Shown piece by piece: positions 3,646 through 37,801 of a stretch of 64,000 bases of DNA. Position 1 is the stretch's first letter. Every line of letters starts with the position of its first letter. The DNA is from Candidatus Gastranaerophilales bacterium. GTDB taxonomy: Bacteria > Cyanobacteriota > Vampirovibrionia > Gastranaerophilales > Gastranaerophilaceae. The notes beneath the pieces are model-generated. The model worked only from the letters and a program-made list of their open reading frames with translations, made no database searches and was not told the DNA's origin. The stretch lies in the NCBI GenBank assembly GCA_944322675.1, contig CALUPO010000011.1, positions 1,752 to 65,751 of the forward strand, given 5' to 3'. Position numbers and translations under genes: made by a program.

Positions 3646-3678
3646 TTTTATTTTAATTCTCTCCACACAACAAAAAGT

Positions 3679-8176: not shown

Positions 8177-8252
8177 TATTTGTATCCTTTTTTGTATATA
8201 TTTGTAAATTATCTTAATTGTATATAGTATTAATGTACCAAATATAAAACAT

Positions 8253-8281
8253 ATTGTAAAATAATATTTATTTATTGTCAA
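8253..8281 (-). promoter_or_regulatory. sigma-70-type promoter (TTGACA-17-TACAAT) on the minus strand
   Basis: Minus strand reads TTGACA (8281-8276), a 17-nt spacer, then TACAAT (8258-8253). The 'TTG' start of ORF 7973..8281 is the first three bases of this -35 box. Confidence 0.5.
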
Positions 8282-8299
8282 GCAAATTATAATATAATT

Positions 8300-8524: not shown

Positions 8525-8580
8525 ATAAATTAAAATTTAACATTATAAAGGTGTGTAATTTAGTAATAATAGCAAAAATT

Positions 8581-9946: not shown

Positions 9947-10052
9947 AGTATTGCAAAAATGACCAAATTGTGATATTATAAATAAGTGCTTGACATGGTT
10001 GTGACTTGTTTGTCATAACTTGTAGGTTAAGTTGGTAAAAGGGGGCTTGCTA

Positions 10053-10319
10053 ATGAATATCAGTTTAAAGAATGTAAATAATCAAAATAAAAAAGAATGT
10101 CAACCACTTCGTAACAATGCAGGTGTGCAGCCTTTACGTGGTAAAGCGTCAAAAAATACAAGTTTTGCAAGTTCTACAGTTGCGGCACCATCTGATAATT
10201 CAAATTCAGTGTCTCAAAAGGATTATGCAGCTTTACAGGCTAAGTATGATGTGGCTTGCCGTATAATAGCATCTCAACGTCTAAATTCACAAAATAAATC
10301 ACTTAATTATCTTGCATAA
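10053..10319 (+). CDS. small hypothetical protein (88 aa)
   Basis: ATG at 10053, 7 nt after AAAGGGGG. No recognisable domain. Sits directly upstream of dprA. Confidence 0.45.
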   Translation: MNISLKNVNNQNKKECQPLRNNAGVQPLRGKASKNTSFASSTVAAPSDNSNSVSQKDYAALQAKYDVACRIIASQRLNSQNKSLNYLA

Positions 10320-10326
10320 AAAAATT

Positions 10327-11418
10327 ATGGAAAATGACAAGTATTTTATAGGCTTTTCTTCAATTGATAATATATCAGCAAATTTTATTGGAAAACTATA
10401 TAAGTATTTTAATGGTGATATAAAAAAAGCATGGGAAGTTTGTGAATTAGATTTAAGAGAAATTGAAGGATTAAGGAAATCTTCTTGTGAAAAATTTCTA
10501 AAAAGCCGTGACAAAACTGATTTAGACAAAGTTTACAATTATATTTTAGAAAATAATATTAAATATTTAACTATTGAAAATGATAAATATCCGGCTCTTT
10601 TAAAAGAAATTAAAGAGCCGCCTTTAAATTTGTTTTATCTTGGTGATTTAGAACGTTGCAATTTCAACCGTTGTTTGGCTATTGTTGGTTCAAGAAATGC
10701 AAGTAATTCTTCAAAAAAAGTGTTAAAAAATATATTAAATGAACTTAAAAATACAGATTTGTGTGTTGTTTCAGGACTTGCACTTGGAGCTGACACTCAA
10801 GCACATTTGTGTGCTATTGAAAATAAATTATCAACTATTGCAATTATTGGCGGCGGATTTAATAAACTATATCCCCATCAAAATAGAAAGTTATTCAATG
10901 ATATAATAGATAAGTATGGCGTAGTTTTTAGTGAAGCCTGGCCTGATTTTGAGCCTATTGCCTGGAGATTTCCTCACCGCAACCGTATAGTTAACGGTAT
11001 TTCCAGAGGTACACTGGTTATTGAAGCAAAATTAAAAAGCGGTGCTATAATAACAGCAAATATGTGTTTAGATGAAGGGCGTGAATTGATGTGTATACCT
11101 GGAGAAATTTTAAACCCTAATACCCAGGGTATATATCATCTTCTTAAAAACGGGGCAACTCTTGTAACCTGTGCACAGGATCTTCTTGATGCTTTAAATT
11201 GGAATTTGTCTACTCAAAAAATAACAAACAATAGTAATTTGGAATTAAATGATATTGAAAAAAAAGTTTATGATTGTATTTCTATAAATACCCCAAATTT
11301 TGATGATATTGTTTTAAAAACTTCATTAAATTCTGATGAACTTATGTTATATTTGACAACTTTGGAATTAAAGGGTTTAATAAAACAAGTAGAGGGTAGT
11401 CGATATATGGTAATATAA
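10327..11418 (+). CDS. dprA: DNA-processing protein DprA (Smf)
   Basis: 'LAIVGSRNAS' and 'VSGLALGADTQAH' Rossmann-fold DprA motifs. ATG at 10327; the track TTG at 10312 overlaps the upstream ORF. Confidence 0.9.
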   Translation: MENDKYFIGFSSIDNISANFIGKLYKYFNGDIKKAWEVCELDLREIEGLRKSSCEKFLKSRDKTDLDKVYNYILENNIKYLTIENDKYPALLKEIKEPPLNLFYLGDLERCNFNRCLAIVGSRNASNSSKKVLKNILNELKNTDLCVVSGLALGADTQAHLCAIENKLSTIAIIGGGFNKLYPHQNRKLFNDIIDKYGVVFSEAWPDFEPIAWRFPHRNRIVNGISRGTLVIEAKLKSGAIITANMCLDEGRELMCIPGEILNPNTQGIYHLLKNGATLVTCAQDLLDALNWNLSTQKITNNSNLELNDIEKKVYDCISINTPNFDDIVLKTSLNSDELMLYLTTLELKGLIKQVEGSRYMVI

Positions 11419-11420
11419 AT

Positions 11421-20388: not shown

Positions 20389-23300
20389 TCAACTATTTCT
20401 CAAACCCAAATTTGAAAATAATCCACTATACTGATAGGAACTTTGATTAAACATTTGTTCAATAATTTTATAATCAGCTTCCAATTTTGCCATAAGTTCA
20501 TCATTTTTAGATTTTAAAGAAGAAATTCGATTATTATATTCATCTAATTTATTGTTACTATTTGAATAGATACTTGCAAATTTTCCTTTAACAAACAAAT
20601 CAATAGAAGATACAATTGTATCTTGCAAATTTGACAAATAATTTGTAAAATTCATATTTTCATTTAAAGTATTTAACAATTTATCACTATCAACATTTAA
20701 AACAGAACCTCTTGAACTTTCATCATAACCAAATGTAAAACCAACAATTGACCCGTATGTTCCTTCACTTTGATTAACAACATTATTCATATTTTTTATT
20801 AGCTCATTAATTGCCATTTTATCTGAAAATGATGTAGTGTTATCAATAAGATTATTTATTTTTGAAGCTTGTTTCAAAACATTATTATAAGCATTAACAA
20901 ATTCATCTATAATTTTTTTGTTGCTTTCATCAATTTGTTCATTTACACTATTTATAACATCTTCAATACCTTCTAAAGATCCTCCTTCATTTGATGATGT
21001 TTCTATCTTGATATTAGTTTCTCTTATATCACCAATTTTAAAGTCGTCGTCATTTTTAACTTCAAATGTAACACTTCCATTTTCGTTTCCATTTTCATCA
21101 TATTGGCTTATAGTATAATAAAATTTATTATCAGTTGCATTTTTTGTAATAGTTTGAACTGTTAAAGGATTGCCTTCATTATCAGTTCCTGAAATTTGCA
21201 TTTGATTTTCATTTATTTTTTCTATATTAAGATTATAATTATTGCTGCTTAAATTTCCTGTTTTTTCAATCATTTGAATAATATTTGTTGCACCTGATAA
21301 ATCTTCAATCACTATATCAGGTGTTGCTGCTGTGGCTTCATTAACTGTTATGGTATGTTCACCTAGTTTAAATACATCAATATTAAATGAACCAAGCATA
21401 ACATTTTCATCATTAGATGACATATTTTTTACAATAGTTGAAAATGAAATACCATTATCATCAATAGAACTTGTAATATTTCCTATCTCATAATTTATAC
21501 CATCTTCATTTTTTACAGTTATCGTAACATCATCAGGTAAAGTTTGAACATTTGTATTAGTTGAATATACTCCATCTTTTATGGTAATAAATCCTAAATT
21601 AAGCAAAAAATTTTGTGAATAACCATTTCCCGATGCAAAATCAATATAGCTTAAATACCCGTCAGTCCTTTTTATTTGTAAAGAGCTAGTTATATCATTA
21701 AAAGAAGCTTCAACACCAGTATTAGCGTTATTAATTGCATCAATTAATTGATTTATAGTCCAACTTTGTTTTATTTCAATACTTGGTCCTCCATTTATTG
21801 TAATTGCATCATCCCATGCCAACCCCAAAGCTGATAGATTTTTATAATAATTTCCTGCTTCATCACCTTGAATCTTTGCTTCAAACTGATATTCTTCTAC
21901 AACCGGCTTTAACATATTAACAATTGAGCTTGAACCACTAATTTGAATATTACTACGAGGTATAAAACCGCTATTACTAATAAAGTTTTGTGTTAAAAGA
22001 TCATAATTAAAACCTATTTTTTCTTGCATAAATATTTTAAATGCATCAACTGTGGTATTTGAGTCTATATTAAAAATCTCTTCATTACCATTAATATTAA
22101 TTATTAAATCACCTTCTGTAATTTTATTATTAGAGTCTGTGTCATATGAATAGTTTATTAATTTATCATCAATTGTAGGCGGTGCATCATCACCGGTTTT
22201 CGCATTTATAGTAACTGTTGTATCAACCAAAGATATTAATTGAAAGAAGGCATTATTTCCACTTGTTATATTTCTAATATTAATGGTATTATCACTGCTC
22301 ACTTCAAGACCAAGCCCTTTAACAACATCAAGGACAGTATCACCTTCTTGTGGTGCATAATCTTTTCTAACGTCATTTATTGTGATAGTATATCTTATTT
22401 TAGGATCAACACTATTTGACATTATTGAAGAAATATCTGCTTCCATTGTATAGTCAGAGAGATTATAATAATTTTCTAAATTATTATCATTGAAATCTAA
22501 ATACTTTAATATATAGGTAGTGCTGCCATCTTTGATCGTATATTGGTTTATAGTCGAAGTAAATTTTATATTAGATTCATTAACTTGCATACTAATGCCA
22601 CCATTTGAACCGCCTAAGTAATAAGAATTGCCATAAGTTCCTTCATTCGCTATTGTACCTTCCCATGTTTTTGAATTTGTCCCTAATCCATCATCAATAG
22701 TTAAATTCAATATGCCTGAAAAATTTACGTCTTCAAAATTAGTATAAAATCCTTGGAAATCCGATGTATCAATTGTGCCATTGCTTAATGCACTTGCTAA
22801 AGAATCTAAATTCAAAACATCAACAACACTTCCTTCACTTGTATTTGAGCTTGAAAAGCTTAAACTTTGATATCCTAAACCTGTATTCATTTGAATACTA
22901 ATTTTTCCATTTAAATCTATTGAAGCACCTTTAATAATATTGGACTTATTATTAAGATTGTTTAGAAAATCATTAATTGTAGTCTGTTCATTTATATCAA
23001 TAATTATTTCTTCTGTGTCTCCAACTATAACAGTCACCGTTTCACTTGGTCCTTGAATATTATAGCCAGCCAACTCAAATATTTTTTGACTGCCAATGTG
23101 TTCTTTCTTAAATTTAATATCGTCAAATCCACTAGAAGATTCAGCATAAATAGAATCCCCTGAGACATTTATTGTATAATCTCCAGGTGCAAAAGTTCCT
23201 TCATAATTTCCAACATTTATTGCATATAAATCATTTGAAACAACACCTGCAGGTTTTGAAGCCTGCCCTTTTATTATTAAGTCATTTGTTATTGTAATAA

Positions 23301-23601
23301 GAGAGGAACTGCCTTGTGAAATATTTATATCAGAATTAACTTTATTTTTTAAACCCGCCAGATTTTGAGTTTTTGTCGACAAAATAGCAAGCTGAGATTT
23401 TAAATTGTCAAGATAACTAATTTTATTTGTCAAACTTTGAGCCTTGGATTCATATTTTGATATTAAATTTTGATTTAAACTACTTGTCTTATCAAGCATA
23501 TTTGATTTTATTAAACTAAGTAAATTATCACTTCCATAACCTGAACTGCTTCCCCATAAAGCTTGAGCAGCATATTGATTATAATTTAATAAAGATGACA
23601 T
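20389..23601 (-). CDS. fliD: flagellar filament cap protein FliD, unusually large (about 1070 aa)
   Basis: N-terminus 'LISKYESKAQSLTNKISYLDNLKSQLAILSTKTQNL', central 'IIDEFVNAYNNVLKQ' (cf. E. coli 'IKDWVNAYNSLIDTF'), C-terminus 'LEADYKIIEQMFNQSSYQYSGLF'. Start is ATG 23601 or TTG 23604, after GGAG. Confidence 0.8.
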   Translation of the reverse strand: MSSLLNYNQYAAQALWGSSSGYGSDNLLSLIKSNMLDKTSSLNQNLISKYESKAQSLTNKISYLDNLKSQLAILSTKTQNLAGLKNKVNSDINISQGSSSLITITNDLIIKGQASKPAGVVSNDLYAINVGNYEGTFAPGDYTINVSGDSIYAESSSGFDDIKFKKEHIGSQKIFELAGYNIQGPSETVTVIVGDTEEIIIDINEQTTINDFLNNLNNKSNIIKGASIDLNGKISIQMNTGLGYQSLSFSSSNTSEGSVVDVLNLDSLASALSNGTIDTSDFQGFYTNFEDVNFSGILNLTIDDGLGTNSKTWEGTIANEGTYGNSYYLGGSNGGISMQVNESNIKFTSTINQYTIKDGSTTYILKYLDFNDNNLENYYNLSDYTMEADISSIMSNSVDPKIRYTITINDVRKDYAPQEGDTVLDVVKGLGLEVSSDNTINIRNITSGNNAFFQLISLVDTTVTINAKTGDDAPPTIDDKLINYSYDTDSNNKITEGDLIININGNEEIFNIDSNTTVDAFKIFMQEKIGFNYDLLTQNFISNSGFIPRSNIQISGSSSIVNMLKPVVEEYQFEAKIQGDEAGNYYKNLSALGLAWDDAITINGGPSIEIKQSWTINQLIDAINNANTGVEASFNDITSSLQIKRTDGYLSYIDFASGNGYSQNFLLNLGFITIKDGVYSTNTNVQTLPDDVTITVKNEDGINYEIGNITSSIDDNGISFSTIVKNMSSNDENVMLGSFNIDVFKLGEHTITVNEATAATPDIVIEDLSGATNIIQMIEKTGNLSSNNYNLNIEKINENQMQISGTDNEGNPLTVQTITKNATDNKFYYTISQYDENGNENGSVTFEVKNDDDFKIGDIRETNIKIETSSNEGGSLEGIEDVINSVNEQIDESNKKIIDEFVNAYNNVLKQASKINNLIDNTTSFSDKMAINELIKNMNNVVNQSEGTYGSIVGFTFGYDESSRGSVLNVDSDKLLNTLNENMNFTNYLSNLQDTIVSSIDLFVKGKFASIYSNSNNKLDEYNNRISSLKSKNDELMAKLEADYKIIEQMFNQSSYQYSGLFSNLGLRNS

Positions 23602-23682
23602 CAAAAAATCACTCCAAACTTTATATATTATAACTATTCCACATTTATTGTAGTAGTAAACACAATGTTAAGTTTTATATAT

Positions 23683-24075: not shown

Positions 24076-25206
24076 ATGCAACAAGTCTCAAATGAAAATA
24101 AAGGAACAAATGTAAATTCATTAAAAGAATCTTTAGATGGTCTTTTTAATATAAGTAATTTAATCACAAAACCAACTATATTAATAGTTGATGATGAAGA
24201 AAATAATCTTCAACTTTTAGTTCGCACATTTAGATCAAGTTATTCTATCTTAACGGCACAAAATGGTGAAGAAGCTTGTGAAATTGTAAATAAACAAGGT
24301 GAAAATATTTCACTTATTATAACCGACCAGATTATGCCTGTTATGACAGGTGTTCAATTCCTCAAAAAAATTACACCACAATATCCTAATATTGTAAAAA
24401 TATTATTAACGGGCTATTCTGATTCAAATGATATTATTGATGCAATTAACCATTGTAATATATACCAATATGTCTTAAAACCATTCACTCCAACGGATTT
24501 AAAGTTTATTGTAAGTCAAGCATTAACCAAATATAATCTTGCAAAATCAAACCTTTTAATGATAAAAGACTTAAAAGAATTATTTTATAACACTTTAAAA
24601 GCAATATCATCAGCACTTGATTCAAAAGATCCTTATACTCATGGTCATTCAATGCGTGTTACAATGTATTCACTTATCCTTGCAAGAAAGCTTAATTTAG
24701 ATGATAAAATGCTTGAAGAAATAGAAACAGCAGGTTTACTTCATGATATCGGTAAAATAGGTATACCACAAAACATATTATGTAAACCCGGTAAGTTAAC
24801 AGATGAAGAATTTGCCATTATGAAATCACATCCAGAGAAAGGTGAAAAAATTCTTATGGGAATTAAGAGATTATCCATCATTTCAAATTGGCTCAAAACT
24901 CATCATGAAAGATGGGATGGCAAAGGCTATCCTCTTGGCTTAAAAGGTGAAGAAATACCATTTTCATCAAGAATTATTGCACTTGCCGACACTTATGATG
25001 CAATGACTTCAACACGTTCCTACCGTAAAGCACTTACTCATGAAATTGCTATTTCAGAAATTGAAAAATGTGCAGGAACTCAATTTGACCCTAACTTAGC
25101 TAAAATGTTTGTTGAAGTGCAAGATGAAATCCTCGAAGCAAAAAATAACCCCGAGGAATATTACAAAAAATATAGCTATATCTATAAAAACTCTAAATTT
25201 ATATAG
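24076..25206 (+). CDS. response regulator with receiver + HD-GYP output domain (RpfG-like)
   Basis: Receiver 'ILIVDDEENNLQLL...IITDQIMPVMTG...KILLTGYSD'. Output 'LLHDIGKIGIP' and 'HHERWDGKGYP'. Confidence 0.9.
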   Translation: MQQVSNENKGTNVNSLKESLDGLFNISNLITKPTILIVDDEENNLQLLVRTFRSSYSILTAQNGEEACEIVNKQGENISLIITDQIMPVMTGVQFLKKITPQYPNIVKILLTGYSDSNDIIDAINHCNIYQYVLKPFTPTDLKFIVSQALTKYNLAKSNLLMIKDLKELFYNTLKAISSALDSKDPYTHGHSMRVTMYSLILARKLNLDDKMLEEIETAGLLHDIGKIGIPQNILCKPGKLTDEEFAIMKSHPEKGEKILMGIKRLSIISNWLKTHHERWDGKGYPLGLKGEEIPFSSRIIALADTYDAMTSTRSYRKALTHEIAISEIEKCAGTQFDPNLAKMFVEVQDEILEAKNNPEEYYKKYSYIYKNSKFI

Positions 25207-25716: not shown

Positions 25717-26886
25717 CTATACTTTTAAACCTTTTAAGTCATCTAATTTTATCATATTTTGATCACAATAAGCATACACATTTTTTGCATTAGATTTATA
25801 TGCATCATTTGCAACTTTAATATATCTTTTTTTAATGAAAGTCATAAAAGTATCTTCATCTTTATACTTTTTCTTATGTTCTCTTATAACCTTACCTTGT
25901 CTATCATATAAAGACACACTAGCTTCATGTTTTGTATCATCTTTTTCAAAATGGCTTTCAACAACTTTATTTTGCCCATCTTCTAAATCGCTATAATAAT
26001 TTGTTTGTTTATAGTCAAAAGATATCCCATTTTGAGGATTATGATATTTATAGGAACCAGGAGGAACAATATTTCCATTTTTATCTTCTTTTAAAACCAT
26101 ATATGAACCATCGGTAACTTCTGTCATTTTTGGTGTAAGAACTGTAGTACTTTTCAATTTTCCATCTTTATTATAAAAATTTAAATTAAATATATTATCT
26201 TTACTACGTTGAAGCTTAAAATATTCACCAGTTTTATGATTTGTAAGAGTATCCTCATTTATATCAGTATTGTAATACCTTGATGCTATTTTTTTTGTTA
26301 ATGCAACATTTTCATTAGCTTCAACAAAATCATTCAACATATTATTTTTTTCATCTTTAGTTTTCAATTTAACAACACTTTCATATTGAACATCTTGAGG
26401 ATCTTTATTAAAGAAAGTAGTAAACTTATAAGAAGCGGGATTATCTTTAGATACCTCAACATTGTATAATGGAAGAGTATAATTATAAAAACTTCTGCTA
26501 TCAGAATAGGTTATAACTAAAGGTTCAACAGGATTTGCAGGTTCAAGACTCATTACACCTTCATTATTTTTATTCATATTAAAATAATATACAATATCTT
26601 TATAATTTACCTTTAATTGATTCTCATTATTTTTTAAATCACCACTTTGATTAAATTTAGAAAAACTGCCATCCGAGCTTTCTGGTAAACTATAATCAAT
26701 TTTATTTTTTGAAAGCTTAACATTAAGGTTTTTTACTGAAATATCATTTTTTTTTGACATTTTTTTTATTTTATCTTTATTTTCAAGAAGAGTTGATACA
26801 ACCAATTTTCCATTTTCTGATTTTGTTTTTAACCCATTTTTTATTTGCTGTGCCGGTTTAAAAGTTATGCGCTGAACTGAAGACAT
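25717..26886 (-). CDS. hypothetical protein (389 aa), no recognisable domain
   Basis: ATG 9 nt after AAGGAG. Lys/Asn/Tyr-rich and predicted beta-rich, with no signal peptide seen. Lies upstream of, and on the same strand as, the Gly/Ser/Cys-rich gene. Confidence 0.6.
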   Translation of the reverse strand: MSSVQRITFKPAQQIKNGLKTKSENGKLVVSTLLENKDKIKKMSKKNDISVKNLNVKLSKNKIDYSLPESSDGSFSKFNQSGDLKNNENQLKVNYKDIVYYFNMNKNNEGVMSLEPANPVEPLVITYSDSRSFYNYTLPLYNVEVSKDNPASYKFTTFFNKDPQDVQYESVVKLKTKDEKNNMLNDFVEANENVALTKKIASRYYNTDINEDTLTNHKTGEYFKLQRSKDNIFNLNFYNKDGKLKSTTVLTPKMTEVTDGSYMVLKEDKNGNIVPPGSYKYHNPQNGISFDYKQTNYYSDLEDGQNKVVESHFEKDDTKHEASVSLYDRQGKVIREHKKKYKDEDTFMTFIKKRYIKVANDAYKSNAKNVYAYCDQNMIKLDDLKGLKV

Positions 26887-26988: not shown

Positions 26989-29646
26989 TTAAAATTTATC
27001 TATAATTGTCTTATATAAAGCATCAAAAGTTACTTTAAAATCAATATCATTGTCAACAGATGCTGATCCTTGTGCATAATTTGGTTTTCCACCACCTTTT
27101 CCACCAATTTTTTCAAGAATTTGATTTAAAATAACTTTTGCATCCAAATTACTCTTAATATATTTATCACTTATTTTTACAATAACTGAAACTTTATTAT
27201 TGTCGTTGTTAATATCTCTATTCTTAGATGCTAAAACAATAATACTTTCTTTATATCTATCACTTAACATATCAACTACATTTTTTAAATATTTAGGATT
27301 AACATCATTTATAAATTTTATAAGTATTTTTCCATTACCATCATTTAAATCACAAAATTCATTATAAAGCTCACTTATTTTAGATTTAATAATATCAGAT
27401 TCAAGTTTTATTATTTGCTTTTCTAAATTTTTACTATCAACAATTAACTTATTAACACGACTTAAAATTTCATCAGGTCTAGCTTTTAACAATTCAACTA
27501 ATTTATCAAGTTCAATAGCTTTTTTGTTAATATATTCTATTGCAAAATTTTCGCAACAAGCCTCAATACGCCTAACACCACTTGATATTGCAGACTCTTG
27601 CAGTATTTTTACATATTTTAACTCACTTGTATTTTTAACATGGGTGCCGCCGCATAACTCACAAGATACATCACCTATTTTCACAACTCTTACTTTTGCA
27701 TCATATTTTTCATTAAACAATGCCATTGCACCTGTTTTTTTTGCTTCATCAATATCCATAATTTGAGTATTTTGAGCTAGATTTTCATTTACCCAATTAT
27801 TTATAATATTTTCAACTTCAAATAAATTATCTTTCGTTAAAGCATGAGAATACGAGAAGTCAAATCTTGTTCTTCCTTCTTCAACCTGAGAACCCATTTG
27901 ATGAACCTCATTGCCTAAAACTTTTATTAAAGCTGCCTGAAGTAAGTGTGCTAATGTATGATGACAAGCTATATTTTGTCTTTTTTCTTTATCAACTTGA
28001 GATAAAACAATATCATTAACTTTAATTTCACCTTTTAAAATTTTAATCCTATGAACAAATAATTTATTAACCTTAAAAACATTAACAACTTTGCCTTCAA
28101 AATTATCATTATATATTTTTCCACTATCACAAATTTGTCCGCCGCTTGTTGCATAAAATGGTGTTTTGTCTAAAATTATATCTAATATCTTTTCATCATT
28201 TTTATTTTCAACTATTGCTACAACCTTTGAATCATTTTCAAATAAGTTTTGATAACCTGTAAAATTTGTAATTCCATATTTATTTTCAATTTCAACATAA
28301 ACTAAATCATCTGTTAAAATAACTTTTTGAGCGGCATCTTTGGCTCTTTGCTTTTGTTCTTTCATACAACGATTAAAGCCTTCAATATCAACTTTAACAT
28401 TATTTTCATTTGCTATTTCAACTGTTAACTCAAGCGGAAATCCGAATGTATCGTACAATTTAAAAGCATTTTCACCACTTATCATCTTATCATTTTGGTT
28501 TAGAAGTTCATTTAATAATTTTTCACCACGTTGAAGTGTTCCTTGGAATTTTTCTTCCTCTTCCTTAATTACACTAATAATTTTATCTCGTTTTTCTTCT
28601 AATTCAGGGTATACTTTTTTATATTTATCAATAACGAAAGAAACAAGATTAAACAAATTAGGCAGTTTTATACCAAGAATCATAGCATGTCTTAAAGCAC
28701 GTCTTAAAATCATCCTTAAAACGTAATTACGACCTTCGTTGCCTGGTATTAAACCATCAGATACCATAAATGTACAACATCTAATATGATCAGCAATAAT
28801 ACGTAAACTAATATCAGTTTTTTCAGATTTATGATATTCAATATTTGCAAGTTTTGCAACTTCTTCCAAAATAGGAAACAATAAATCTGTTTCAAATGTT
28901 GAACTTTTGCCTTGACATACCATAGCGATACGCTCTAAGCCCATTCCGGTATCAACGTTTTTTTTCTCCAAAGGAGACAATTTGCCATCTTCATCTTGAA
29001 ATAATTCCATAAAAACAAGGTTCCATATTTCAACCCATCTATCACACTCGCAAGTTGAGATAGAACAATTAGGCGAGCATTTATACTCTTCTCCTAAGTC
29101 ATAATGTATTTCAGTACATGGTCCACAAGGCCCTGTTGGTCCCGGAGGTCCCCAAAAATTATCCTTCTTTCCTTTACGAATAATACGTTTTTCATCAATA
29201 CCAACAACTTCATGCCATATTTTAAACGCTTCGTCATCATCTTTGTATATTGTTATATATAGCCTATCTTTATCGAGTTTCAAATATTCAGTTACAAATT
29301 CCCAAGCCCAAGGAATAACTTCTTTTTTAAAATAGTCACCGAAACTAAAATTTCCAAGCATTTCAAAAAAAGTGTGGTGTCTTGGAGTTCTACCCACATT
29401 TTCAATATCAGAATCCTTGCCTCCGGCTCTTGCACATTTTTGACAACTTGTTGCTCTTGGTGGATTATATGGAGCTTTTTTTAACCCTAAAAATATAGGA
29501 ACAAATTGTAACATTCCTGCTGTAGTTAACAAAACCGTAGGATTATCAGGTACTAAACTTGAACTTTTAACTATTGTACAATTATGTTTTTCATTAAAAT
29601 AATTTAAAAACATACTACGTATTTGCTCTCCGGTTAATTTTTCCAT
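26989..29646 (-). CDS. alaS: alanine--tRNA ligase
   Basis: 885 aa. 'HHTFFEMLGNFSFGDYFK', editing-domain 'HTLAHLL' and 'CGGTH'. Confidence 0.97.
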   Translation of the reverse strand: MEKLTGEQIRSMFLNYFNEKHNCTIVKSSSLVPDNPTVLLTTAGMLQFVPIFLGLKKAPYNPPRATSCQKCARAGGKDSDIENVGRTPRHHTFFEMLGNFSFGDYFKKEVIPWAWEFVTEYLKLDKDRLYITIYKDDDEAFKIWHEVVGIDEKRIIRKGKKDNFWGPPGPTGPCGPCTEIHYDLGEEYKCSPNCSISTCECDRWVEIWNLVFMELFQDEDGKLSPLEKKNVDTGMGLERIAMVCQGKSSTFETDLLFPILEEVAKLANIEYHKSEKTDISLRIIADHIRCCTFMVSDGLIPGNEGRNYVLRMILRRALRHAMILGIKLPNLFNLVSFVIDKYKKVYPELEEKRDKIISVIKEEEEKFQGTLQRGEKLLNELLNQNDKMISGENAFKLYDTFGFPLELTVEIANENNVKVDIEGFNRCMKEQKQRAKDAAQKVILTDDLVYVEIENKYGITNFTGYQNLFENDSKVVAIVENKNDEKILDIILDKTPFYATSGGQICDSGKIYNDNFEGKVVNVFKVNKLFVHRIKILKGEIKVNDIVLSQVDKEKRQNIACHHTLAHLLQAALIKVLGNEVHQMGSQVEEGRTRFDFSYSHALTKDNLFEVENIINNWVNENLAQNTQIMDIDEAKKTGAMALFNEKYDAKVRVVKIGDVSCELCGGTHVKNTSELKYVKILQESAISSGVRRIEACCENFAIEYINKKAIELDKLVELLKARPDEILSRVNKLIVDSKNLEKQIIKLESDIIKSKISELYNEFCDLNDGNGKILIKFINDVNPKYLKNVVDMLSDRYKESIIVLASKNRDINNDNNKVSVIVKISDKYIKSNLDAKVILNQILEKIGGKGGGKPNYAQGSASVDNDIDFKVTFDALYKTIIDKF

Positions 29647-29700: not shown

Positions 29701-29740
29701 AAAAAAAATGAGAGTTAATTAATCATTAACTCTCATTTTT
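29701..29740 (-). terminator. Rho-independent terminator between tpsA-like gene and alaS
   Basis: 12-bp stem atgagagttaat/attaactctcat (29708-29736). An A8 run on the + strand at 29701-29708 supplies the U-run for the minus transcript. Confidence 0.7.
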
Positions 29741-29762: not shown

Positions 29763-32700
29763 TTATATTTTTGACAATATATTCATAAACGATGGTTGTT
29801 TTTCTTGATTTTGATCATTTGCAGCTGTTTGTTCTTTTTGGGCTTCATTTAACATACTTAGATACAATATCTTATTTGCTGTTAAATTATCAACATCTGT
29901 GAATCTTAATCCTGCAATATTTGTTGATTGGTCAACCCTCATAACTTTTGCTGTTGCTTCAACTTCTATTCCTTTGTAAGCAAAGCTTACTTTTACTTCA
30001 TCATTAATCTTCAAACTACCATCAGTTTTTACAGCTAAACCTGTTTTTGATATATCTAAGATATTTTGAATATGTTCACTTGCTGCCCCAAGAGATAATG
30101 AATCGCCATTTACACCATATCTTATTGATTCACGTTTTAATTCCAAGAAATTATTATCTTCTTCTCTATCGTATATTAATCTTGTTGGATCATTATCTCT
30201 AATTATTGGTAAATTAGAATTATCATTTCCTGGATTTGGTGTCGGATCTATAGGTGTAACTGGAGGTATATTTGGTTCATCAGGGAATGGTGTACGTGTT
30301 ACATCTAGTGTAATATATGGATCTTCAGTTGTATTTCTTGGTGTTTCAATACTATATTCGTGATCTTTAACGTCTCCATTTACATTACCTGGATTATTGA
30401 TATCTCCACTACCATTGTTTTCAACAAGTACATCATTTCCATCAACATTACCATTTATGTTAACTTCACCACCATTATCTGAATTTGATATTGTTACATT
30501 ATCACCATCAACATTGCCATTAACATTAACGTCACCGCCATTGTTAGTTATTGTAACATCACCACCTTGAACATCACCATTTGTTGTTATTCCATCATCA
30601 CCTGAGTTTTGAATTAAAGTACTATCATCACCTGTGATATCACCATCTATTATTATACCTCCATCTCGATTTGGTGAATCCTGATCTATTCTATCTACAT
30701 CAAGTGTGATTAAACCATCATTATGTTTGATTTGTGGTGTTTCTATATCGTATGTTTGATTTTGTATTAATATTTTACCTCCATTTACATCACCGCCTAT
30801 TGCGATATCACCTGAACCTGCGTTTTCAATTAATACTATATCATTACCTTGAATATTTGAATTAATTGTAACGCCTCCTGTTCCTTGATTTGATTGTGTT
30901 ATAATTACTTCATTTCCGGTTACTGTTCCACCATTGTTCAAGTTTATTGCACCACCATTATTAGTTATTGCAACTATATCATTACCTTGAACATCACCGT
31001 TTGATGTTATACCATTAGTTCCTGAATTTTGGATATAAACTTCATTTCCGGTTATGTCTCCGTTTGAAATTATACCACCACCAAGGTTTGGTGAAGCATT
31101 CTCATTACGCTCAACACCTAACAATATATAATTACCTTCCGGTACACGTGGTGTTTCCATATCATATGTTTGATTTTCAAGAAATATACGTTGTCCAGAT
31201 AGTGAACTTGTCTCTGTTAACTCTATATTACCATTTCCTGAGTTTTCAACAACAACATCACCATTATTTGCTTGAATGTCAGCTGCTATATTTATACCAC
31301 TTGTAGCATTGCTTGAATTTGATATTACTACATCTCGATATTGAGCTATAATATCAACATTTCCAATATTAATTCCACCATTATCATTAGTTATCATTAA
31401 ATTATCGGATGTTATATTATTATTTATAGCAATTCCTTCACTACCTGCATTTTGTATAAATACATCACCTCCACTTATTGTTCCGTTTGCAACTATACCG
31501 CCATCAACATTTTGTGATGCTTGATTTACACGATTTACATCAAGAACTATATAGTCATTATTAAATGAAACATGTGGTGTTGTTATATCATAGGTTTGAT
31601 TTTCTACTATAACATAACCACCATTTGCATTTAAATTACCATTCAATACTATTGAGCCAGGTGCTGCATTTTCAATTGTTAACATACCACCATTTTGAGC
31701 TGTGATATTTGAACCTACAGTTATACCGCCATTTGCATTGTTTGAATTTGAAACAGTAACATTATTACCGATTATATTTCCACTTTCTAAATTAATGCTG
31801 CCACCATTATTTGTAATCAACACATCACCTTGAGATGTGATATTTGAATTAGCCTCAATACCTTGACTGCCAGAATTTTGAATATAAACATTACCGCCTG
31901 TTATTGCTCCTGTTGTAAATATACCACCATCAACATTTTGTGATGCTTGATTTACACGATTTACATCAAGAACTATATAGTCATTATTAAATGAAACATG
32001 TGGTGTTGTTATATCGTATGTTTGATTTTCAATCAATACATTTCCATTATTACCTGTAAGATTTCCATTAACTACAATATTACCACTACCTGCATTTTCA
32101 AGTAATAACATTTCTTGTGACAATATATTTGAACCAACATTTATACCACCTGTTGTGTTATTTGATGCTGATACTATAACGCTATTACCTGATATGTTAC
32201 CATTTTGCAAGTTAATACCTGCGTTATCACTTGTTATCATTAAATTACCAGATGCTGTTATATTATTGTTTGTTGATATACCATTAGCACCTGAATTTTG
32301 GATGTATACATTATTACCTGCAAGAGTTCCATTTGCAACAATTCCACCATTTTTATTAGTTGAATCCACACTATTACGTGTCAATGAAACTGCATCAGAA
32401 GTTTCTACATCCGATTTATTTATTGCTATTTGATAATTTTGATTTTGTATTGACAAATCTCCATTATTTGCATTTATGTTTCCATTTAAAGCTATATCTG
32501 TATTTGATGAATTTTCAATTAATGTAAAGCCATTTGTATTCATATTCCCTACATTAAATGATGAACCATTTACATTGCTTATAACTGTGTTACCTTGTGA
32601 AGTATTATTAATAGCTCCTGTTATATTAAATGCACCTTCTGCACCTTGTACTATTAATGTGTCTCCATTTGTTGTAACTGAACCAGATATATTCAAATCA

Positions 32701-35591
32701 CTACCATTTACATCATTATATATTGTTGTTTTACCACCTGCAAATGTGTTTGAAATATTTATACTATCTGTTCCATAATTAGCTACAAGAGTATCGCCTG
32801 TTGAGTTAACAACTCCTTGCATATTTATCCCGCCTTGTCCCTCTTTAATAACTGCAAGTGAACCGGCATTTATATTTGTATTGTTACCAACATTTATGGA
32901 TACATTACTTGTGTCTTTTATTGTTGTTTTGCCACCGCTTGTGGTATTTGTTCCATTAGCCAATGTTATACCTTGTTGACCTTCATTGTATAATGTCAAA
33001 TAACCATCGGTTGTTATATCTTTTGATATTGCTATTCCGCCATTTGCTCCTGAGTTTGTTTGCTCAACTGTGATACCGGCTACATTATCAACAACATCGC
33101 CTGTTATATTGATTAAGCTATTTCCTTTGTTTGTTATTGTTGTTGCATTTTGTGCACCAAGTGTTCCTGAAACATTTATACCGCCTGTATTGGATGCTTC
33201 ATTAACTATTTGGGTTGTGCCTTGTGTTGTTCCATTATTTAAAGTTCCTGCAAGATTTATAGCACCTGTTGTATTATTTTGTACAAGAACATCACCATTT
33301 GCATTAACTGTTCCGGTTAAATTAATATCACCTTCATTGTCGTTTTGTACCACTAAACCACCTGTTGTTATAGTGTTATTAATGTTAATATCAGCAATAC
33401 CTGTGTCATTAATAAATGTTGTTCCGGCTGCATTTATAGCGTTATTAAACATTATACCTCTATTACCGGAATTTATAACATCAACACCGCCTGCACTTAT
33501 AATGCTGCCATTTATATTAACACCGCCTGAACTTCCAGTGCGTGTCAAAGAAACAACACCATTAACACCTTTGCTTTCAAGAACTGCACTATTTGCTATA
33601 TATAAATCTTTTAAATTTGCACTATCTTGCCCAAAGAATTCAGTCAAAAGTATCTGATTATCTCTTATATTGATACCCCAAGGGGTAAATCCTTGAAAAT
33701 TATCTTTATTTTCATTTATATTCAGATCTTTACTATACATATAAGTAGTATCAGAAACACCATCAGCACTTCCTTTATGAACAATATTAATATCTTTATC
33801 AGATGTTAACTTGCCGCCAACTGATAAACCACCTTTTGATGTTTCTGTTGTTTCAATATTAATACCATTATAATTTGCACTTCCATTATTAGTGCTTGTT
33901 ATAGTTCCATTTGCAATAATAGAACCTGAATTACTTTCGATATTAATATTTCCGTTTGCAGTTGTTGTTCCATAATGATAAATTTCTCCTTTTTTAACTG
34001 GATTTAATGAGTCTGCTTGTGAAGTTTTTACATTAACATCTCCATTTTCAAGATTTATGTTACCATTTAAATATATATCACCTTGCACAACACTACTATT
34101 ATTTAAAACAGCTAAATTACCGCTATCATAAATATTTATATCATTAAGTAAATATATCTGACTACCCTCACCATCAGAACTTGCAACTATATTAACATCA
34201 CCATTTGTAATATTAAAATTAGCAGTCTTATCAAAACCAATTGAACCACCATTTTCAGTTGTTTGTATGATATTTAAGTCTCCATTATTAATATTAATAT
34301 CACCTAAGCCATATAAACCAAAATTCGAACCAGAATTAATCGTTACATGATTTTTTATTGTTACACCAGCACCTTCAACATTATTTTGGTTATCCACATT
34401 TATATCACCCAAAAGTATCATCTGTAAACCAGCATTTTCTAAATTTACAGTTTCTTTGGCATTTAGTTTCCCTGTTTCTTCAAGACGTAAAGTAGACCCT
34501 ATCAAGTTCTGAGGAACTTCAGTACTATCAATATCTTGTTTATTTGAAATAGAGATATTTCTTGCATTAACCTCTCCTTCAATAAAAGTCCTTGGGGAAT
34601 TACTCAATATTTCATTATCACTATTAATAAATGTCTCATTTGTTATAGCATTAAAACTAAAATCATTTGCAACATAAGTTTTTCCACCAATTACATTGTT
34701 ATAAGTACGTGAATAATTTGTTGATATATTATTATTATTTATATTAATATCGACATCACCATTTGCAACCATTGTTGCATTACTACTAGTATAAGCTCTA
34801 GTTCCATTTATAGCGATATTTCCATTTTTAATACCAAAATCTATATCACTTGATGAAAAATCATTTTGACCACCATTAACAATAAGTTCAAATAATCTTC
34901 CGGCATTGTTGCGAGCATTGGCTATATCAGATTGAGAAATTTGTGCAACGGCTTCTTGCGAATATTCTGCATTATTAGAAACAAAACCGGTGGCAATTTT
35001 GGAATTATCTAAGTTAATATTAGAACCATTTAAAGTCATGCCTTCTTTTGTTAAAACCATGCCGTTAATTGTTATATTACCGCCTCCATAAAATTGGTCG
35101 CTATTTAACAATGCATCTGTCATTTGGCTTACATCAAGGTTTTTAAATGAATCATAGACAGCTTTAGATGGTGTATAAACACCTAATGAACCAACGTTTA
35201 CAACCCCGCTTGAACCTACAACAAAGCCATTTGGTGATACAAATATAGCACGTCCATTTGCAAATGCACCATTACCATTAACCGTATTTAAAATACCATT
35301 AATTGTAACCTGATTATCAACTGCATTTATAAATCTATTTATTCCATTAAATATTAAATTGGCGGTATGGCCCTGGTCAAGCTGAAAATCAGTATAATGA
35401 CGAAAACCTGTTGACCCGTTTACTTTTGCAGGATCAATATTATAAACACCATTATTACCGGTTATCCCAGTAATGTTTGACGCAAAGGATACAAGATTAG
35501 CTTGAAACCCTATCATCGTCATGGCTAAAAATGAAGCAACAACACGCTTCATCCTGGACTTAGATTTAAATTTGCTACATTTCATAGTCAT
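29763..35591 (-). CDS. two-partner-secretion exoprotein (TpsA / filamentous-haemagglutinin family) with C-terminal PilZ domain
   Basis: 1942 aa. SD AAGGAG lies 5 nt before the ATG. Signal peptide 'MKRVVASFLAMTMIGFQANLVSFA'. TPS domain 'GFRHYTDFQLDQGHTANLIF...AIFVSPNGFVVGSSGVVNVGSL'. Long Asn/Gly/Ile-rich beta-helix repeats. Pro-rich linker. The last ~125 aa carry 'RESIR' and 'DISKTG'. Confidence 0.9.
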   Translation of the reverse strand: MTMKCSKFKSKSRMKRVVASFLAMTMIGFQANLVSFASNITGITGNNGVYNIDPAKVNGSTGFRHYTDFQLDQGHTANLIFNGINRFINAVDNQVTINGILNTVNGNGAFANGRAIFVSPNGFVVGSSGVVNVGSLGVYTPSKAVYDSFKNLDVSQMTDALLNSDQFYGGGNITINGMVLTKEGMTLNGSNINLDNSKIATGFVSNNAEYSQEAVAQISQSDIANARNNAGRLFELIVNGGQNDFSSSDIDFGIKNGNIAINGTRAYTSSNATMVANGDVDININNNNISTNYSRTYNNVIGGKTYVANDFSFNAITNETFINSDNEILSNSPRTFIEGEVNARNISISNKQDIDSTEVPQNLIGSTLRLEETGKLNAKETVNLENAGLQMILLGDINVDNQNNVEGAGVTIKNHVTINSGSNFGLYGLGDININNGDLNIIQTTENGGSIGFDKTANFNITNGDVNIVASSDGEGSQIYLLNDINIYDSGNLAVLNNSSVVQGDIYLNGNINLENGDVNVKTSQADSLNPVKKGEIYHYGTTTANGNINIESNSGSIIANGTITSTNNGSANYNGINIETTETSKGGLSVGGKLTSDKDINIVHKGSADGVSDTTYMYSKDLNINENKDNFQGFTPWGINIRDNQILLTEFFGQDSANLKDLYIANSAVLESKGVNGVVSLTRTGSSGGVNINGSIISAGGVDVINSGNRGIMFNNAINAAGTTFINDTGIADININNTITTGGLVVQNDNEGDINLTGTVNANGDVLVQNNTTGAINLAGTLNNGTTQGTTQIVNEASNTGGINVSGTLGAQNATTITNKGNSLINITGDVVDNVAGITVEQTNSGANGGIAISKDITTDGYLTLYNEGQQGITLANGTNTTSGGKTTIKDTSNVSINVGNNTNINAGSLAVIKEGQGGINMQGVVNSTGDTLVANYGTDSINISNTFAGGKTTIYNDVNGSDLNISGSVTTNGDTLIVQGAEGAFNITGAINNTSQGNTVISNVNGSSFNVGNMNTNGFTLIENSSNTDIALNGNINANNGDLSIQNQNYQIAINKSDVETSDAVSLTRNSVDSTNKNGGIVANGTLAGNNVYIQNSGANGISTNNNITASGNLMITSDNAGINLQNGNISGNSVIVSASNNTTGGINVGSNILSQEMLLLENAGSGNIVVNGNLTGNNGNVLIENQTYDITTPHVSFNNDYIVLDVNRVNQASQNVDGGIFTTGAITGGNVYIQNSGSQGIEANSNITSQGDVLITNNGGSINLESGNIIGNNVTVSNSNNANGGITVGSNITAQNGGMLTIENAAPGSIVLNGNLNANGGYVIVENQTYDITTPHVSFNNDYIVLDVNRVNQASQNVDGGIVANGTISGGDVFIQNAGSEGIAINNNITSDNLMITNDNGGINIGNVDIIAQYRDVVISNSSNATSGINIAADIQANNGDVVVENSGNGNIELTETSSLSGQRIFLENQTYDMETPRVPEGNYILLGVERNENASPNLGGGIISNGDITGNEVYIQNSGTNGITSNGDVQGNDIVAITNNGGAINLNNGGTVTGNEVIITQSNQGTGGVTINSNIQGNDIVLIENAGSGDIAIGGDVNGGKILIQNQTYDIETPQIKHNDGLITLDVDRIDQDSPNRDGGIIIDGDITGDDSTLIQNSGDDGITTNGDVQGGDVTITNNGGDVNVNGNVDGDNVTISNSDNGGEVNINGNVDGNDVLVENNGSGDINNPGNVNGDVKDHEYSIETPRNTTEDPYITLDVTRTPFPDEPNIPPVTPIDPTPNPGNDNSNLPIIRDNDPTRLIYDREEDNNFLELKRESIRYGVNGDSLSLGAASEHIQNILDISKTGLAVKTDGSLKINDEVKVSFAYKGIEVEATAKVMRVDQSTNIAGLRFTDVDNLTANKILYLSMLNEAQKEQTAANDQNQEKQPSFMNILSKI
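30300..32460. repeat. tandem about-426-bp (142-aa) coding repeats, 5.5 units, within the TpsA gene
   Basis: Units each start with '(I/V/L)(E/Q)NQTYD(I/M)xTP'. An 89-nt exact duplicate occurs at 31501-31589 and 31927-32015, offset 426 bp. Confidence 0.9.
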
Positions 35592-35914: not shown

Positions 35915-37801
35915 ATGAATTTTAGAAGTAAAAAATTTTTATTGTGTTGGATTTTATCAGGTTTAATACCTTTAAGTGTTGCACAAGCTGCACCAAATAT
36001 GAATATGCCTCAACTACCGCAAGCCGGTGGAATGTTTGATGCCGGGGCTTTAAATAAGCATCAAATTGATTATTTAAAAAACAAAGAAATGACAGAACAA
36101 AAAATGAAAGATTTTGAACAAAGACAGGAAGTTGAACCTGATAGTTTTGATGTTAAAGAACAAAGCATGCAGCCTATTAATTCAACTCAAGAACAACAGT
36201 ATGCTGACCCGCAGCTTCAAATGACAGTTGAAAAATATAAAAATGAAGGGTTTTATTTAAAAAACATTGAAGTTGATGAATCATACATTTTATCAAATGA
36301 TGAAATTAAAGCTATTATTGAACCGCTTGTCGGTCGTGTTGTTCAGCTGGAAGAAATTAAACAAGCAATTGATAAAATTAATCTTTTATATGCAGAAAAA
36401 AACTATATTACTGCACGTGCCTATCTTGAAGATCAAGTGATTGAAGATGGAACTATAAGAATTTCTTTACTTGAAGGACGTGTGGGTGAAGTTAAAATCG
36501 ATGGCAATAAGTGCACAACAAAAGGTTATATCATGCGCCGGCTTGACAATATGGAAATGGGTAACCTTCTTGAACTTAGAAAACTTGAGCAGGATGTAAT
36601 CCAGTTTAACCACGTTAATGAAGGTATTGCAATTAATGCGAACCTTGTTCCCGGAGAGGTTGTTGGTACATCTGATTTAGAGATTTCAGTTCGTGAAAAT
36701 TTTCCTTTTCATATAACATTCGCAACAGATAATGCAGGTCGTGAAACTATAGGTGAAAACCGTTTTGGTGTAATCGGTCAAATAGATAGTTTAACCGGTC
36801 ACAGAGATAAATTGACAGGAGGTACTTATTTGTCAGCATCTTCTGTTACTCCATTTGTTGACTATAATATACCATTAAATAAATCAGGCGGGCGTTTAGG
36901 TGTGTCATATTCTGCTAGTAATATGGACATAACTAAAGGTGACTATGCAATGTTTGATATAAGTGGTAAATCACAATTGGCTCAATTATACTATTCTCAA
37001 CCAATTATCGATAAACCATGGTTAAACTTGACAAGTATTTCAAATGTTGCATATAAAACAGCAAGCACAGATATTGCAGATTTTCAAATATATAAAGATA
37101 AGGTTATTACATTAGGTACAGGTGTATTATTAAGACACGATACACGCCGTGGTATTTGGTATACAAATCACAATGTGTCTTATTCTTTCCCGCTTGACCA
37201 CAGCTATTATGACCCTTATTTTAGATATGAAGGCGGTATAATTCGTATTCATGATTTTGGCAAAGGTATAATAGGTCAATTCCGCGGCTTGTGGCAATAT
37301 TCACCTGAAAAGTACATTCCTTCACTTGACCAGTTCCAAATAGGTGGTGTTTCAACCGTTCGTGGTTATAGCGAAGGTGGTTTAATAGGCCGTACAGGTT
37401 ATGTTGCAAGTGCTGAGCTTATTTTCCCTATCACACCAACTGAATGGAGGTTTAAGCTACGTGGTAAAGAAAGGGTTATATATCCTCGTAACTTAATTAA
37501 AGGTGCTGTTTTCGTTGATCACGGTGCTGTTTTCCCGGGTGGTGAAGATACAACTGTTAATAATTTTATGGCATCAGCAGGTTTTGGACTTCGTGTTAGC
37601 TTACCATTTGATTTAACAGGAAAATTTTACTGGGGCTTCCCTTTCCTAAAAAGCGATTATCTGGCCTACACTTACATGCCAAGGTTCCATTTCGAAATTA
37701 CTGCAGCTCCTGACTTCGACCGCTTAATTGACTTTAAAAATAAACGTATGGCGGAAAGAGTTAAAAGAGCTCCAAAATCTAAGAAAAAAGAAGCATTATA
37801 A
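35915..37801 (+). CDS. TpsB outer-membrane transporter (ShlB/FhaC/HecB family, POTRA + beta-barrel)
   Basis: 628 aa. Signal peptide 'LLCWILSGLIPLSVAQA'. POTRA-like 'IRISLLEGRVGEVKIDGN'. Barrel 'VRGYSEGGLIGRTGYVASAELIFPI'. Ends in an aromatic-rich beta-strand region followed by a basic tail. Divergent from TpsA. Confidence 0.88.
   Translation: MNFRSKKFLLCWILSGLIPLSVAQAAPNMNMPQLPQAGGMFDAGALNKHQIDYLKNKEMTEQKMKDFEQRQEVEPDSFDVKEQSMQPINSTQEQQYADPQLQMTVEKYKNEGFYLKNIEVDESYILSNDEIKAIIEPLVGRVVQLEEIKQAIDKINLLYAEKNYITARAYLEDQVIEDGTIRISLLEGRVGEVKIDGNKCTTKGYIMRRLDNMEMGNLLELRKLEQDVIQFNHVNEGIAINANLVPGEVVGTSDLEISVRENFPFHITFATDNAGRETIGENRFGVIGQIDSLTGHRDKLTGGTYLSASSVTPFVDYNIPLNKSGGRLGVSYSASNMDITKGDYAMFDISGKSQLAQLYYSQPIIDKPWLNLTSISNVAYKTASTDIADFQIYKDKVITLGTGVLLRHDTRRGIWYTNHNVSYSFPLDHSYYDPYFRYEGGIIRIHDFGKGIIGQFRGLWQYSPEKYIPSLDQFQIGGVSTVRGYSEGGLIGRTGYVASAELIFPITPTEWRFKLRGKERVIYPRNLIKGAVFVDHGAVFPGGEDTTVNNFMASAGFGLRVSLPFDLTGKFYWGFPFLKSDYLAYTYMPRFHFEITAAPDFDRLIDFKNKRMAERVKRAPKSKKKEAL

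Follow-up and report, generated by a model that had tools for sequence, protein, structure and literature searches.

Related systems and the TpsA-PilZ locus

In Pseudomonas aeruginosa, high levels of the second messenger cyclic di-GMP (c-di-GMP) keep the two-partner secretion (TPS) adhesin CdrA on the cell via LapD/LapG (PMC8472254). When it has c-di-GMP bound, LapD sequesters LapG, a periplasmic protease that would otherwise cleave the disulfide-bonded C-terminal hook from CdrA. A second TPS pair of the same species, ExlA/ExlB, shows outer-membrane-held ExlA at high c-di-GMP and its release at low c-di-GMP, with transcription unchanged (PMC8472254). The gene that is compared with these systems here, tpsA-pilZ, lies on a 64,000-nucleotide stretch of DNA (the window; contig CALUPO010000011.1, ~28% G+C) from a Candidatus Gastranaerophilales bacterium. 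It encodes a TPS passenger that ends in a canonical PilZ domain. Both parts are of known kinds, their combination is new, and the resulting architecture is common, uncharacterised and, as it seems, undescribed.

The window protein resembles CdrA in being an adhesin-like TPS passenger whose decisive element would lie at the C-terminus; c-di-GMP-dependent retention is, for the window protein, a proposal. It differs from CdrA in carrying the receptor domain itself, and a disulfide hook of the CdrA type is excluded because the single cysteine of the protein (aa 5) is located in the signal peptide. Neither LapD nor LapG was found among the window open reading frames (ORFs) scanned. The control that is proposed for TpsA-PilZ would be a direct, protease-free functional equivalent of the LapD/LapG control of CdrA. 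ExlA, unlike TpsA-PilZ, has no PilZ domain and is controlled by an indirect route, and TpsA-PilZ might indicate the kind of link that is missing there.

On the PilZ side, the closest counterparts are BcsA (cellulose synthase) and Alg44 (alginate), which share the canonical RxxxR/DxSxxG type of domain, the Alg44 PilZ being the nearest solved structure. The PilZ domains of BcsA and Alg44 are cytoplasmic parts of inner-membrane machinery, whereas the window PilZ sits on predicted exported cargo behind a Sec signal peptide. Large TpsA proteins in which a C-terminal portion is kept in the envelope and regulates maturation or delivery are known from the prodomain of FhaB and the secretion arrest of CdiA. 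Their C-terminal parts differ from the window tail in waiting in the periplasm and in lacking a nucleotide-sensing domain, and the window protein showed no sequence similarity to them in a Pfam search. The N-terminus is of the same TPS type, FxxPxG, as that of the leukotoxin LktA family of Fusobacterium necrophorum (NF012204); no PilZ tail is known to have been described for LktA.

No TPS-PilZ protein was found in the literature on PilZ together with two-partner secretion, filamentous hemagglutinin (FHA), adhesins or Melainabacteria, or in that on c-di-GMP in Melainabacteria, and a review of PilZ-related domains mentions neither adhesins and secreted proteins nor secretion signals and the periplasm. 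An earlier note, made on the sequence of this window, had presented the fusion as not previously described. That part stands, while the fusion is no one-off, as the distribution of the family described below illustrates.

The C-terminal PilZ domain

The tail is a canonical PilZ domain by profile hidden Markov model (HMM), motifs, motif spacing and fold. PF07238 matches it with an E-value of 1.2e-10 when the whole protein is searched, and with 3.6e-12 and 46.9 bits (gathering cut-off 22.5) when the last 155 aa are searched alone, the alignment spanning profile positions 2-96 of 102. RESIR and DISKTG, the window forms of RxxxR and [D/N]xSxxG, are separated by 21 residues; among the full-length members of the family, a spacing of 19-25 residues is kept in 39 of 43. 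For the last 140 aa, AlphaFold with an alignment of 81 sequences gives a model in which six strands are followed by a long helix, and the core has a predicted local distance difference test (pLDDT) score >90, compared to block means of ~40-51 for the linker residues ahead of it. The helix begins within the PilZ match (model residues 100-124) and bears the conserved TANK(I/L)LY. Searched with Foldseek against the PDB, the model finds the c-di-GMP-bound Alg44 PilZ as its top match (4xrn and 4rt0, E 1.7e-4, template modelling (TM) score ~0.65). It is followed by PP4397, the CeSA (cellulose synthase) PilZ, MapZ and PA4608, with TM scores of 0.61-0.65 for the top matches. A hydrophobic IDAIDK cluster sits immediately ahead of RxxxR.

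The earlier note had placed the PilZ domain at 29766-30149 and had proposed a profile search and a structure prediction to check it. This range comprises the last 128 codons of the gene and holds the complete PF07238 match, and both analyses bear the assignment out. The strings that were quoted for the 1942-aa protein, among them SPNGFVVG (aa 119-126), PFPDEPNIPPVTPIDPTPNPG (aa 1768-1788, inside the Pro-rich linker) and IAGLRFTDVD (aa 1892-1901), are all present in the translation where they had been reported.

Tails of the family share only ~30% identity, yet the ligand-contacting positions are almost fixed. In RxxxR, the two arginines are kept in 90 of 94 (R33) and 93 of 98 (R37) sequences; in the second motif, D/N59 is kept in 100/101, S61 in 100/102 and G64 in 102/102. 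Near-invariance at such low overall identity is an argument for selection on ligand binding. Both motifs are usually lost from PilZ domains in which c-di-GMP binding has disappeared. Since they are retained here, we infer that the tail has kept c-di-GMP binding.

The PilZ domain is also the best-conserved segment among orthologues, with identities of 86/89/84/72%, compared to 65/55/57/40% in the TPS domain and 60/45/44/24% in the mid region. The C-terminal helix is a further conserved element: T117, A118, N119, L122 and Y123 of TANK(I/L)LY are kept in 73-100 of 106 sequences, which hints at a common protein partner.

The N-terminal secretion domain, the shaft and TpsB

The ORF has the features of a TPS (type Vb) passenger with a neighbouring TpsB, its secretion being predicted. 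Residues 50-196 match the NCBIfam model NF012204 ("leukotoxin LktA family filamentous adhesin") with an E-value of 7.7e-38 and a score of 129.8 bits (cut-off 60), whereas Pfam Haemagg_act (PF05860) has no match in TpsA at E up to 1. The TPS domain that the earlier note had expected to recover by HMM is thus found with the NCBIfam model and missed with the Pfam one, and this is one reason why Pfam architecture surveys would overlook the fusion. A model of aa 40-330 by AlphaFold has block-mean pLDDT values of ~85-97 over the first ~160 residues, apart from a single block at 78. In a comparison with PDB folds, this model comes nearest to the secretion domains of the TPS proteins HxuA, HpmA, EtpA and HMW1; the E-values are weak (0.04-1.8), but the top four matches have probabilities of 0.95-1.0. 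The N-terminal alignment had no match in a profile search of PDB sequences, so that the link to TPS structures is made via fold comparison only.

Between the TPS domain and the linker lie ~1570 aa of repeats, with N (16%), G (12%) and I (10.5%) as prominent residues. Five modules of ~140 aa, each with QTYDI(E/T)TP...LDVxR, are found at aa 1190, 1332, 1474, 1612 and 1744. No Pfam repeat family matched this region; the composition and the five modules are compatible with a presumed β-helix shaft.

TpsB is encoded divergently, across a spacer of 323 bp, and was correctly recognised in the earlier note as a ShlB/FhaC-type transporter: it carries POTRA_2 (E 2.3e-18) and ShlB (E 5.6e-16) domains. 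The gene is syntenic in L001, L002, L004 and L006 (L-numbers denote related loci). At its C-terminus (37720-37801), ~27 strongly basic residues (DRLIDFKNKRMAERVKRAPKSKKKEAL) extend beyond a barrel-terminal-like ...FHFEITAAPDF, and a comparable extension is present on the TpsB fragment of locus L011.

Signal peptide and predicted topology

The predicted signal peptide has a basic n-region MTMKCSKFKSKSRMKR, an h-region VVASFLAMTMIGF and a c-region ending in SFA|SN. On the Kyte-Doolittle scale, the 19-aa maximum within the first 60 aa is 1.57, and such a segment is common to complete family members. The call relies on sequence inspection and this crude hydrophobicity scale rather than on a trained predictor. 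A scan of 44 proteins (the window protein and members of at least 900 aa) found no stop-transfer hydrophobic segment within the 330 aa that precede PilZ, and all scanned proteins with a complete N-terminus show a signal-peptide-like segment. It follows as a prediction that the chain is a Sec substrate over its entire length.

This confirms the paradox that the earlier note had pointed out, i.e., a PilZ domain on an exported protein. Textbooks place the c-di-GMP receptor PilZ in the cytoplasm and TPS passengers outside the cell, and their conserved fusion contradicts the expected sites of both. The cytoplasmic placement expected of PilZ receptors is not what is predicted for a tail that lies behind a Sec signal peptide and lacks an anchor. 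The paradox touches the place of the domain only and leaves its identity intact.

The 70 aa before PilZ are of low complexity in the 43 members compared, with D (18.8%), P (11.1%) and T (9.9%) as prominent residues; poly-Asp, (DT)n of ~45 repeats and PEPT repeats all occur as linkers in the family. A methionine is present in these 70 aa in 21 of the 43 members. The window protein has no methionine between repeats and PilZ, and the family has no conserved start there.

Distribution of the family

NCBI and ENA contain the identical 1942-aa sequence on 13 contigs, of which the longest has 117,681 bp. Because the exact protein recurs in this way, the fusion did not arise as an artefact in the assembly of this genome. 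When 1.84 billion cluster representatives were searched exhaustively with the 155-aa tail (HMMER, E up to 1e-3), 102 relatives were found, half of which (51/102) are at least 600 aa and up to 6412 aa long. PilZ is at the extreme C-terminus in all 51 long relatives, and the median distance between PilZ and the C-terminus is 8 residues over 105 tail homologues. The LktA-type TPS domain is found at the N-terminus of 40 of the 51; the other 11 begin within repeats and look N-terminally truncated.

A genome scan was run on one genome per species with a pattern derived from six tails and restricted to tails with [DS]x[LA]TANKILY. It yielded 68 loci, nearly all labelled Candidatus Gastranaerophilales, Melainabacteria, Cyanobacteria or unnamed gut metagenome-assembled genomes. 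The few other labels are Clostridium sp. CAG:967, CAG:768, uncultured Clostridium sp., Brachyspira sp. CAG:484, Muribaculaceae and Bacillota; the CAG records are taken here to be misnamed Melainabacteria, and the remaining oddly labelled loci are suspected to be mis-binned. TPS and PilZ are encoded in one frame in all loci (32/32) whose ORF is complete in the fetched DNA, and ~20 further ORFs exceed 3,400 aa and run past the fetched edge. The co-occurrence of TPS and PilZ, for which the earlier note had suggested an architecture survey, is thus the standard architecture of a large and diverse family, neither a singleton nor an assembly artefact. The family appears to be a major surface-protein class of Gastranaerophilales, uncultured but common gut relatives of cyanobacteria.

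The architecture is under-represented in databases, mostly in the form of fragments, because the repeats break short-read assemblies and gene callers then split the products. Scaffold gaps of 100 N lie in the repeats just upstream of the tail in L001 (9763-9862), L002 (9343-9442) and L045 (9721-9820), and the same gaps recur at about 9350-9830 in L072-L076; other scaffolds end there. The gene-caller output at such loci consists of PilZ-only products of 100-260 aa and separate N-terminal products, which are named "leukotoxin LktA family filamentous adhesin" by NCBI. Spurious short ORFs on the opposite strand are also emitted by gene callers across the repeat region. Split genes were considered for L001-L003 and L072-L076 (frameshift, programmed shift or stand-alone PilZ) and were rejected in view of the 100-N gaps in the repeats; the apparent split of L003 also involves one local frame break. 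Stand-alone PilZ products were likewise rejected, as all five that were traced (P0002, P0003, P0106, P0137 and P0123) start after gaps, and the PilZ-only product P0171 maps to a contig end. A search with the N-terminal 330 aa for TPS paralogues with other C-termini returned 27 matches, all of them fragments.

Several loci deviate from the common form. In L005 (about 600-13200 of CP091731.1, a chromosome from long reads), the genes tpsB, tpsA and alaS are all spread over several frames, most likely through long-read indel error and not pseudogenisation. L009 (9659-10381), L011 (9551-10345) and L024 (9338-10354) contain C-terminal remnants (241-339 aa) of giant-type tails beside unrelated DNA, the neighbour of the L011 remnant being a C-terminal TpsB fragment on the opposite strand. 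These remnants are either real deletions or collapsed assemblies.

Three tandem TpsA-PilZ paralogues are encoded in L072 (6355-10345, 10579-15021 and 15213-18083), and the same layout is seen in L073 and L074. Paralogues 2 and 3 of L072, read whole, both start with a signal peptide and a TPS domain of their own and end in a PilZ tail behind a long (DT)n linker. An "internal PilZ" at aa 444-518 of an L072 paralogue was rejected as low-complexity repeat sequence.

Small signal-peptide-PilZ proteins

The same PilZ subfamily is also found in small proteins. Among the 102 relatives, 14 are only 150-345 aa long and combine a classical-looking cleavable signal peptide and a spacer of 25-60 aa with a PilZ domain of this subfamily (P0007, P0014, P0034, P0035, P0058, P0081, P0083, P0085, P0087, P0089, P0090 and P0102-P0104). 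Both RxxxR and [DN]xSxxG are intact in them. Two of the small genes are located directly downstream of a TpsA-PilZ gene (L077, 847-1329, and L080, 795-1259). The association between this subfamily and Sec export is systematic, and it would fit either ligand-gated export or an extracytoplasmic role.

Proposed mechanism and alternatives

The TpsA chain would be exported N-terminus first, through SecYEG and then TpsB. Because of this order, PilZ would be made last and would leave the cytoplasm last. c-di-GMP is known from the cytoplasm only (PMC8472254), and PilZ may be read as a built-in sensor that works at the end of translocation, while the C-terminus is still cytoplasmic. In this scheme, PilZ would be a cis-acting c-di-GMP sensor that sets retention versus release at the last inner-membrane export step, a reading that is preferred here tentatively and with somewhat more doubt than belief. 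At high c-di-GMP, the RxxxR arm would clamp the ligand to the β-barrel, and the folded PilZ would resist unfolding and translocation; the clamped arm is the end at which unfolding by SecA would have to begin. In this state, the C-terminus would remain in the cytoplasm, with the disordered Pro-/acid-rich linker threaded through the envelope and the adhesin tethered. At low c-di-GMP, e.g., via HD-GYP activity, PilZ would unfold and be exported, and the protein would be released or its maturation completed. What we infer in this scheme is that the ligand is bound, that PilZ acts in the cytoplasm, that export stalls and which way the effect runs. The export checkpoint that the earlier note had suggested corresponds to this scheme and is a plausible leading model.

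Elements of such a mechanism are known individually. In vitro, a C-terminal domain that is stabilised by its ligand arrests Sec translocation, as dihydrofolate reductase (DHFR) does with methotrexate, and in BcsA and Alg44 the export of a polymer is gated by PilZ. Enzymes of c-di-GMP metabolism are present in the lineage, as seen from the response regulator-HD-GYP protein of the window, a GGDEF protein of L032 and the HD-GYP proteins reported for Melainabacteria. Post-translational control of TPS passenger release by c-di-GMP itself has precedents in CdrA and ExlA (PMC8472254). Several points weigh against a cytoplasmic sensor: with ~52 aa, the window linker is short for spanning the envelope unless some of the shaft stays unfolded, TpsB is adjacent in close orthologues only (it was not found within 10 kb in most of the distant family members), and the 14 small signal-peptide-PilZ relatives are at least as easily read as extracytoplasmic PilZ proteins. 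A folded domain that is stuck in SecYEG also normally harms the cell. If the tail does sense c-di-GMP during export, it would represent the simplest known link between this second messenger of sessile and motile life and adhesion, i.e., one polypeptide without a relay protease.

A wider version of this reading would hold that a canonical PilZ subfamily has been recruited onto Sec-exported proteins, both TpsA proteins of ~1,000-6,400 aa and the small signal-peptide-PilZ proteins, as ligand-gated translocation stoppers. The C-terminus of a stalled TpsA would be held in the cytoplasm, the linker in SecYEG and the periplasm and the shaft through TpsB, until the chain is freed when c-di-GMP drops. 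This generalisation is doubtful; if true, a second-messenger receptor would for the first time be known from within a secreted cargo, in a natural parallel to the laboratory DHFR-methotrexate block.

The strongest competitor, in itself rather unlikely, is that PilZ acts once it has been exported, either within the periplasm or at the filament's distal tip. There it could serve as a folded stopper that keeps the C-terminus below TpsB, as the CdrA hook does, or as a module for binding to a partner or to a ligand outside the cytoplasm (extracellular DNA, c-di-GMP that has been released or some other nucleotide), and it might possibly pair with the small exported PilZ proteins. A chain that is predicted to be a Sec substrate throughout and has no anchor is what this alternative expects, as is the strongly conserved surface helix TANK(I/L)LY, which suggests a protein-protein interface. 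It is further in line with the distal C-terminus of mature FHA and with the C-terminal part of CdiA and FhaB that waits in the periplasm. The earlier note had mentioned an extracytoplasmic use of the fold as its alternative, and this gains real weight because small signal-peptide-PilZ proteins of the same subfamily exist, two of them encoded directly downstream of TpsA-PilZ. The RxxxR and DxSxxG residues, however, are the most conserved positions, though non-binding PilZ domains typically lose them, and a stopper could not be a disulfide hook given the position of the sole cysteine. Moreover, c-di-GMP is known nowhere outside the cytoplasm (PMC8472254), and ligand that was bound there would be lost upon unfolding by Sec. 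If PilZ does work outside the cell, extracytoplasmic cyclic-dinucleotide biology or a new PilZ ligand would be implied.

Two further explanations place PilZ back in a cytoplasm. It is very unlikely that the domain is a free cytoplasmic regulator, produced from an internal start or by cleavage before export, that reports adhesin production to c-di-GMP circuits. The frequent PilZ-only gene calls of 100-260 aa and the upstream methionines in about half of the members (21/43) would fit such a product, but the traced short products begin after 100-N gaps (5/5), a sixth product, P0171, lies at a contig end, a methionine in the window protein and a conserved start in the family are both missing between repeats and PilZ, and the frame from repeats to PilZ is unbroken in 32/32 complete loci. 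Least credible, and highly improbable, is an effector resembling those of contact-dependent inhibition (CDI), in which PilZ would be delivered into the cytoplasm of a neighbour, bind c-di-GMP or a target there and alter its behaviour as a form of contact-dependent signalling. Such an effector would have its ligand available in the target cell, and a functional domain that closes the TPS passenger behind a linker is reminiscent of it, as are the tandem paralogues of some genomes (L072). Its other hallmarks are missing: Pfam at E up to 1 found neither VENN/pretoxin nor Fil_haemagg_2 (FHA repeat) domains, the sequence before PilZ has no entry or translocation domain that could be recognised, and no immunity-like ORF was found downstream of tpsA, where a terminator is followed by alaS. 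The tail is moreover the most conserved part of the protein and not polymorphic.

Gene organisation and neighbouring genes

The features of the locus and the c-di-GMP-related genes of the window are summarised in Table 1.

Table 1. Features of the tpsA-pilZ locus and selected neighbours (window coordinates; aa, residues of TpsA)
Feature	Position	Strand	Basis or remark
tpsA-pilZ gene	29763..35591	-	1942 codons + stop; ORF list and translation
Predicted Sec signal peptide, aa 1-37	35481..35591	-	Sequence reading and Kyte-Doolittle scale
TPS (secretion) domain, LktA/FxxPxG type, aa 50-196, with FVSPNG	35004..35444	-	NF012204
Asn/Gly/Ile/Thr-rich repeats, presumed β-helix shaft	30294..35003	-	Composition, motif positions
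Pro-rich linker, probably disordered, aa 1767-1818	30138..30293	-	Sequence; low pLDDT in model
PilZ domain, aa 1819-1908	29868..30137	-	PF07238, AlphaFold, Foldseek
RxxxR motif RESIR, putative c-di-GMP switch, aa 1820-1824	30120..30134	-	Sequence
[D/N]xSxxG motif DISKTG, aa 1846-1851	30039..30056	-	Sequence
Rest of C-terminal helix and tail beyond PilZ match	29766..29867	-	Model helix, family conservation
Terminator-like hairpin, 16-bp stem and T run	29704..29740	-	23 nt past tpsA stop
alaS	26989-29646		Next gene after hairpin
tpsB, Omp85-type transporter (POTRA_2 + ShlB)	35915..37801	+	Pfam
Response regulator-HD-GYP, candidate c-di-GMP phosphodiesterase	24076..25206	+	Receiver domain; HD, HHE and GYP motifs intact
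Second HD-GYP-like ORF	3687-4511	-	Adjoins flagellin gene
Flagellin	2722-3645		

The proximity of the response regulator-HD-GYP gene to tpsA was set aside as a sign of functional coupling, the synteny being restricted to close orthologues. HD-GYP domains and no EAL domains have been reported for Melainabacteria (preprint 10.1101/2021.11.05.467447). A 216-aa GGDEF protein (Pfam E 2.5e-48) is encoded in L032 at 2476-3123 (minus strand), convergent with the PilZ-tailed gene and 430 bp away from it; it was the sole GGDEF-motif match in a simple regular-expression scan of the ORFs in the DNA fetched by then. A c-di-GMP riboswitch or other RNA element near tpsA was considered and rejected, as no Rfam match at gathering thresholds was obtained anywhere in the window.

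Two ORFs on the minus strand, at 20389-23604 (1071 aa) and 25717-26886 (389 aa), have no Pfam match, while the L002 counterpart of the 1071-aa ORF shows a weak Flagellin_IN match. A 1055-aa SF1 helicase-nuclease-like protein (AAA_11/AAA_12 and REase_MTES_1575) is encoded at 4720-7887 (minus strand), and an N6-adenine methylase with type I/IIG features at 17553-19805 (minus strand). Both are possible defence genes that would be unrelated to TpsA-PilZ.

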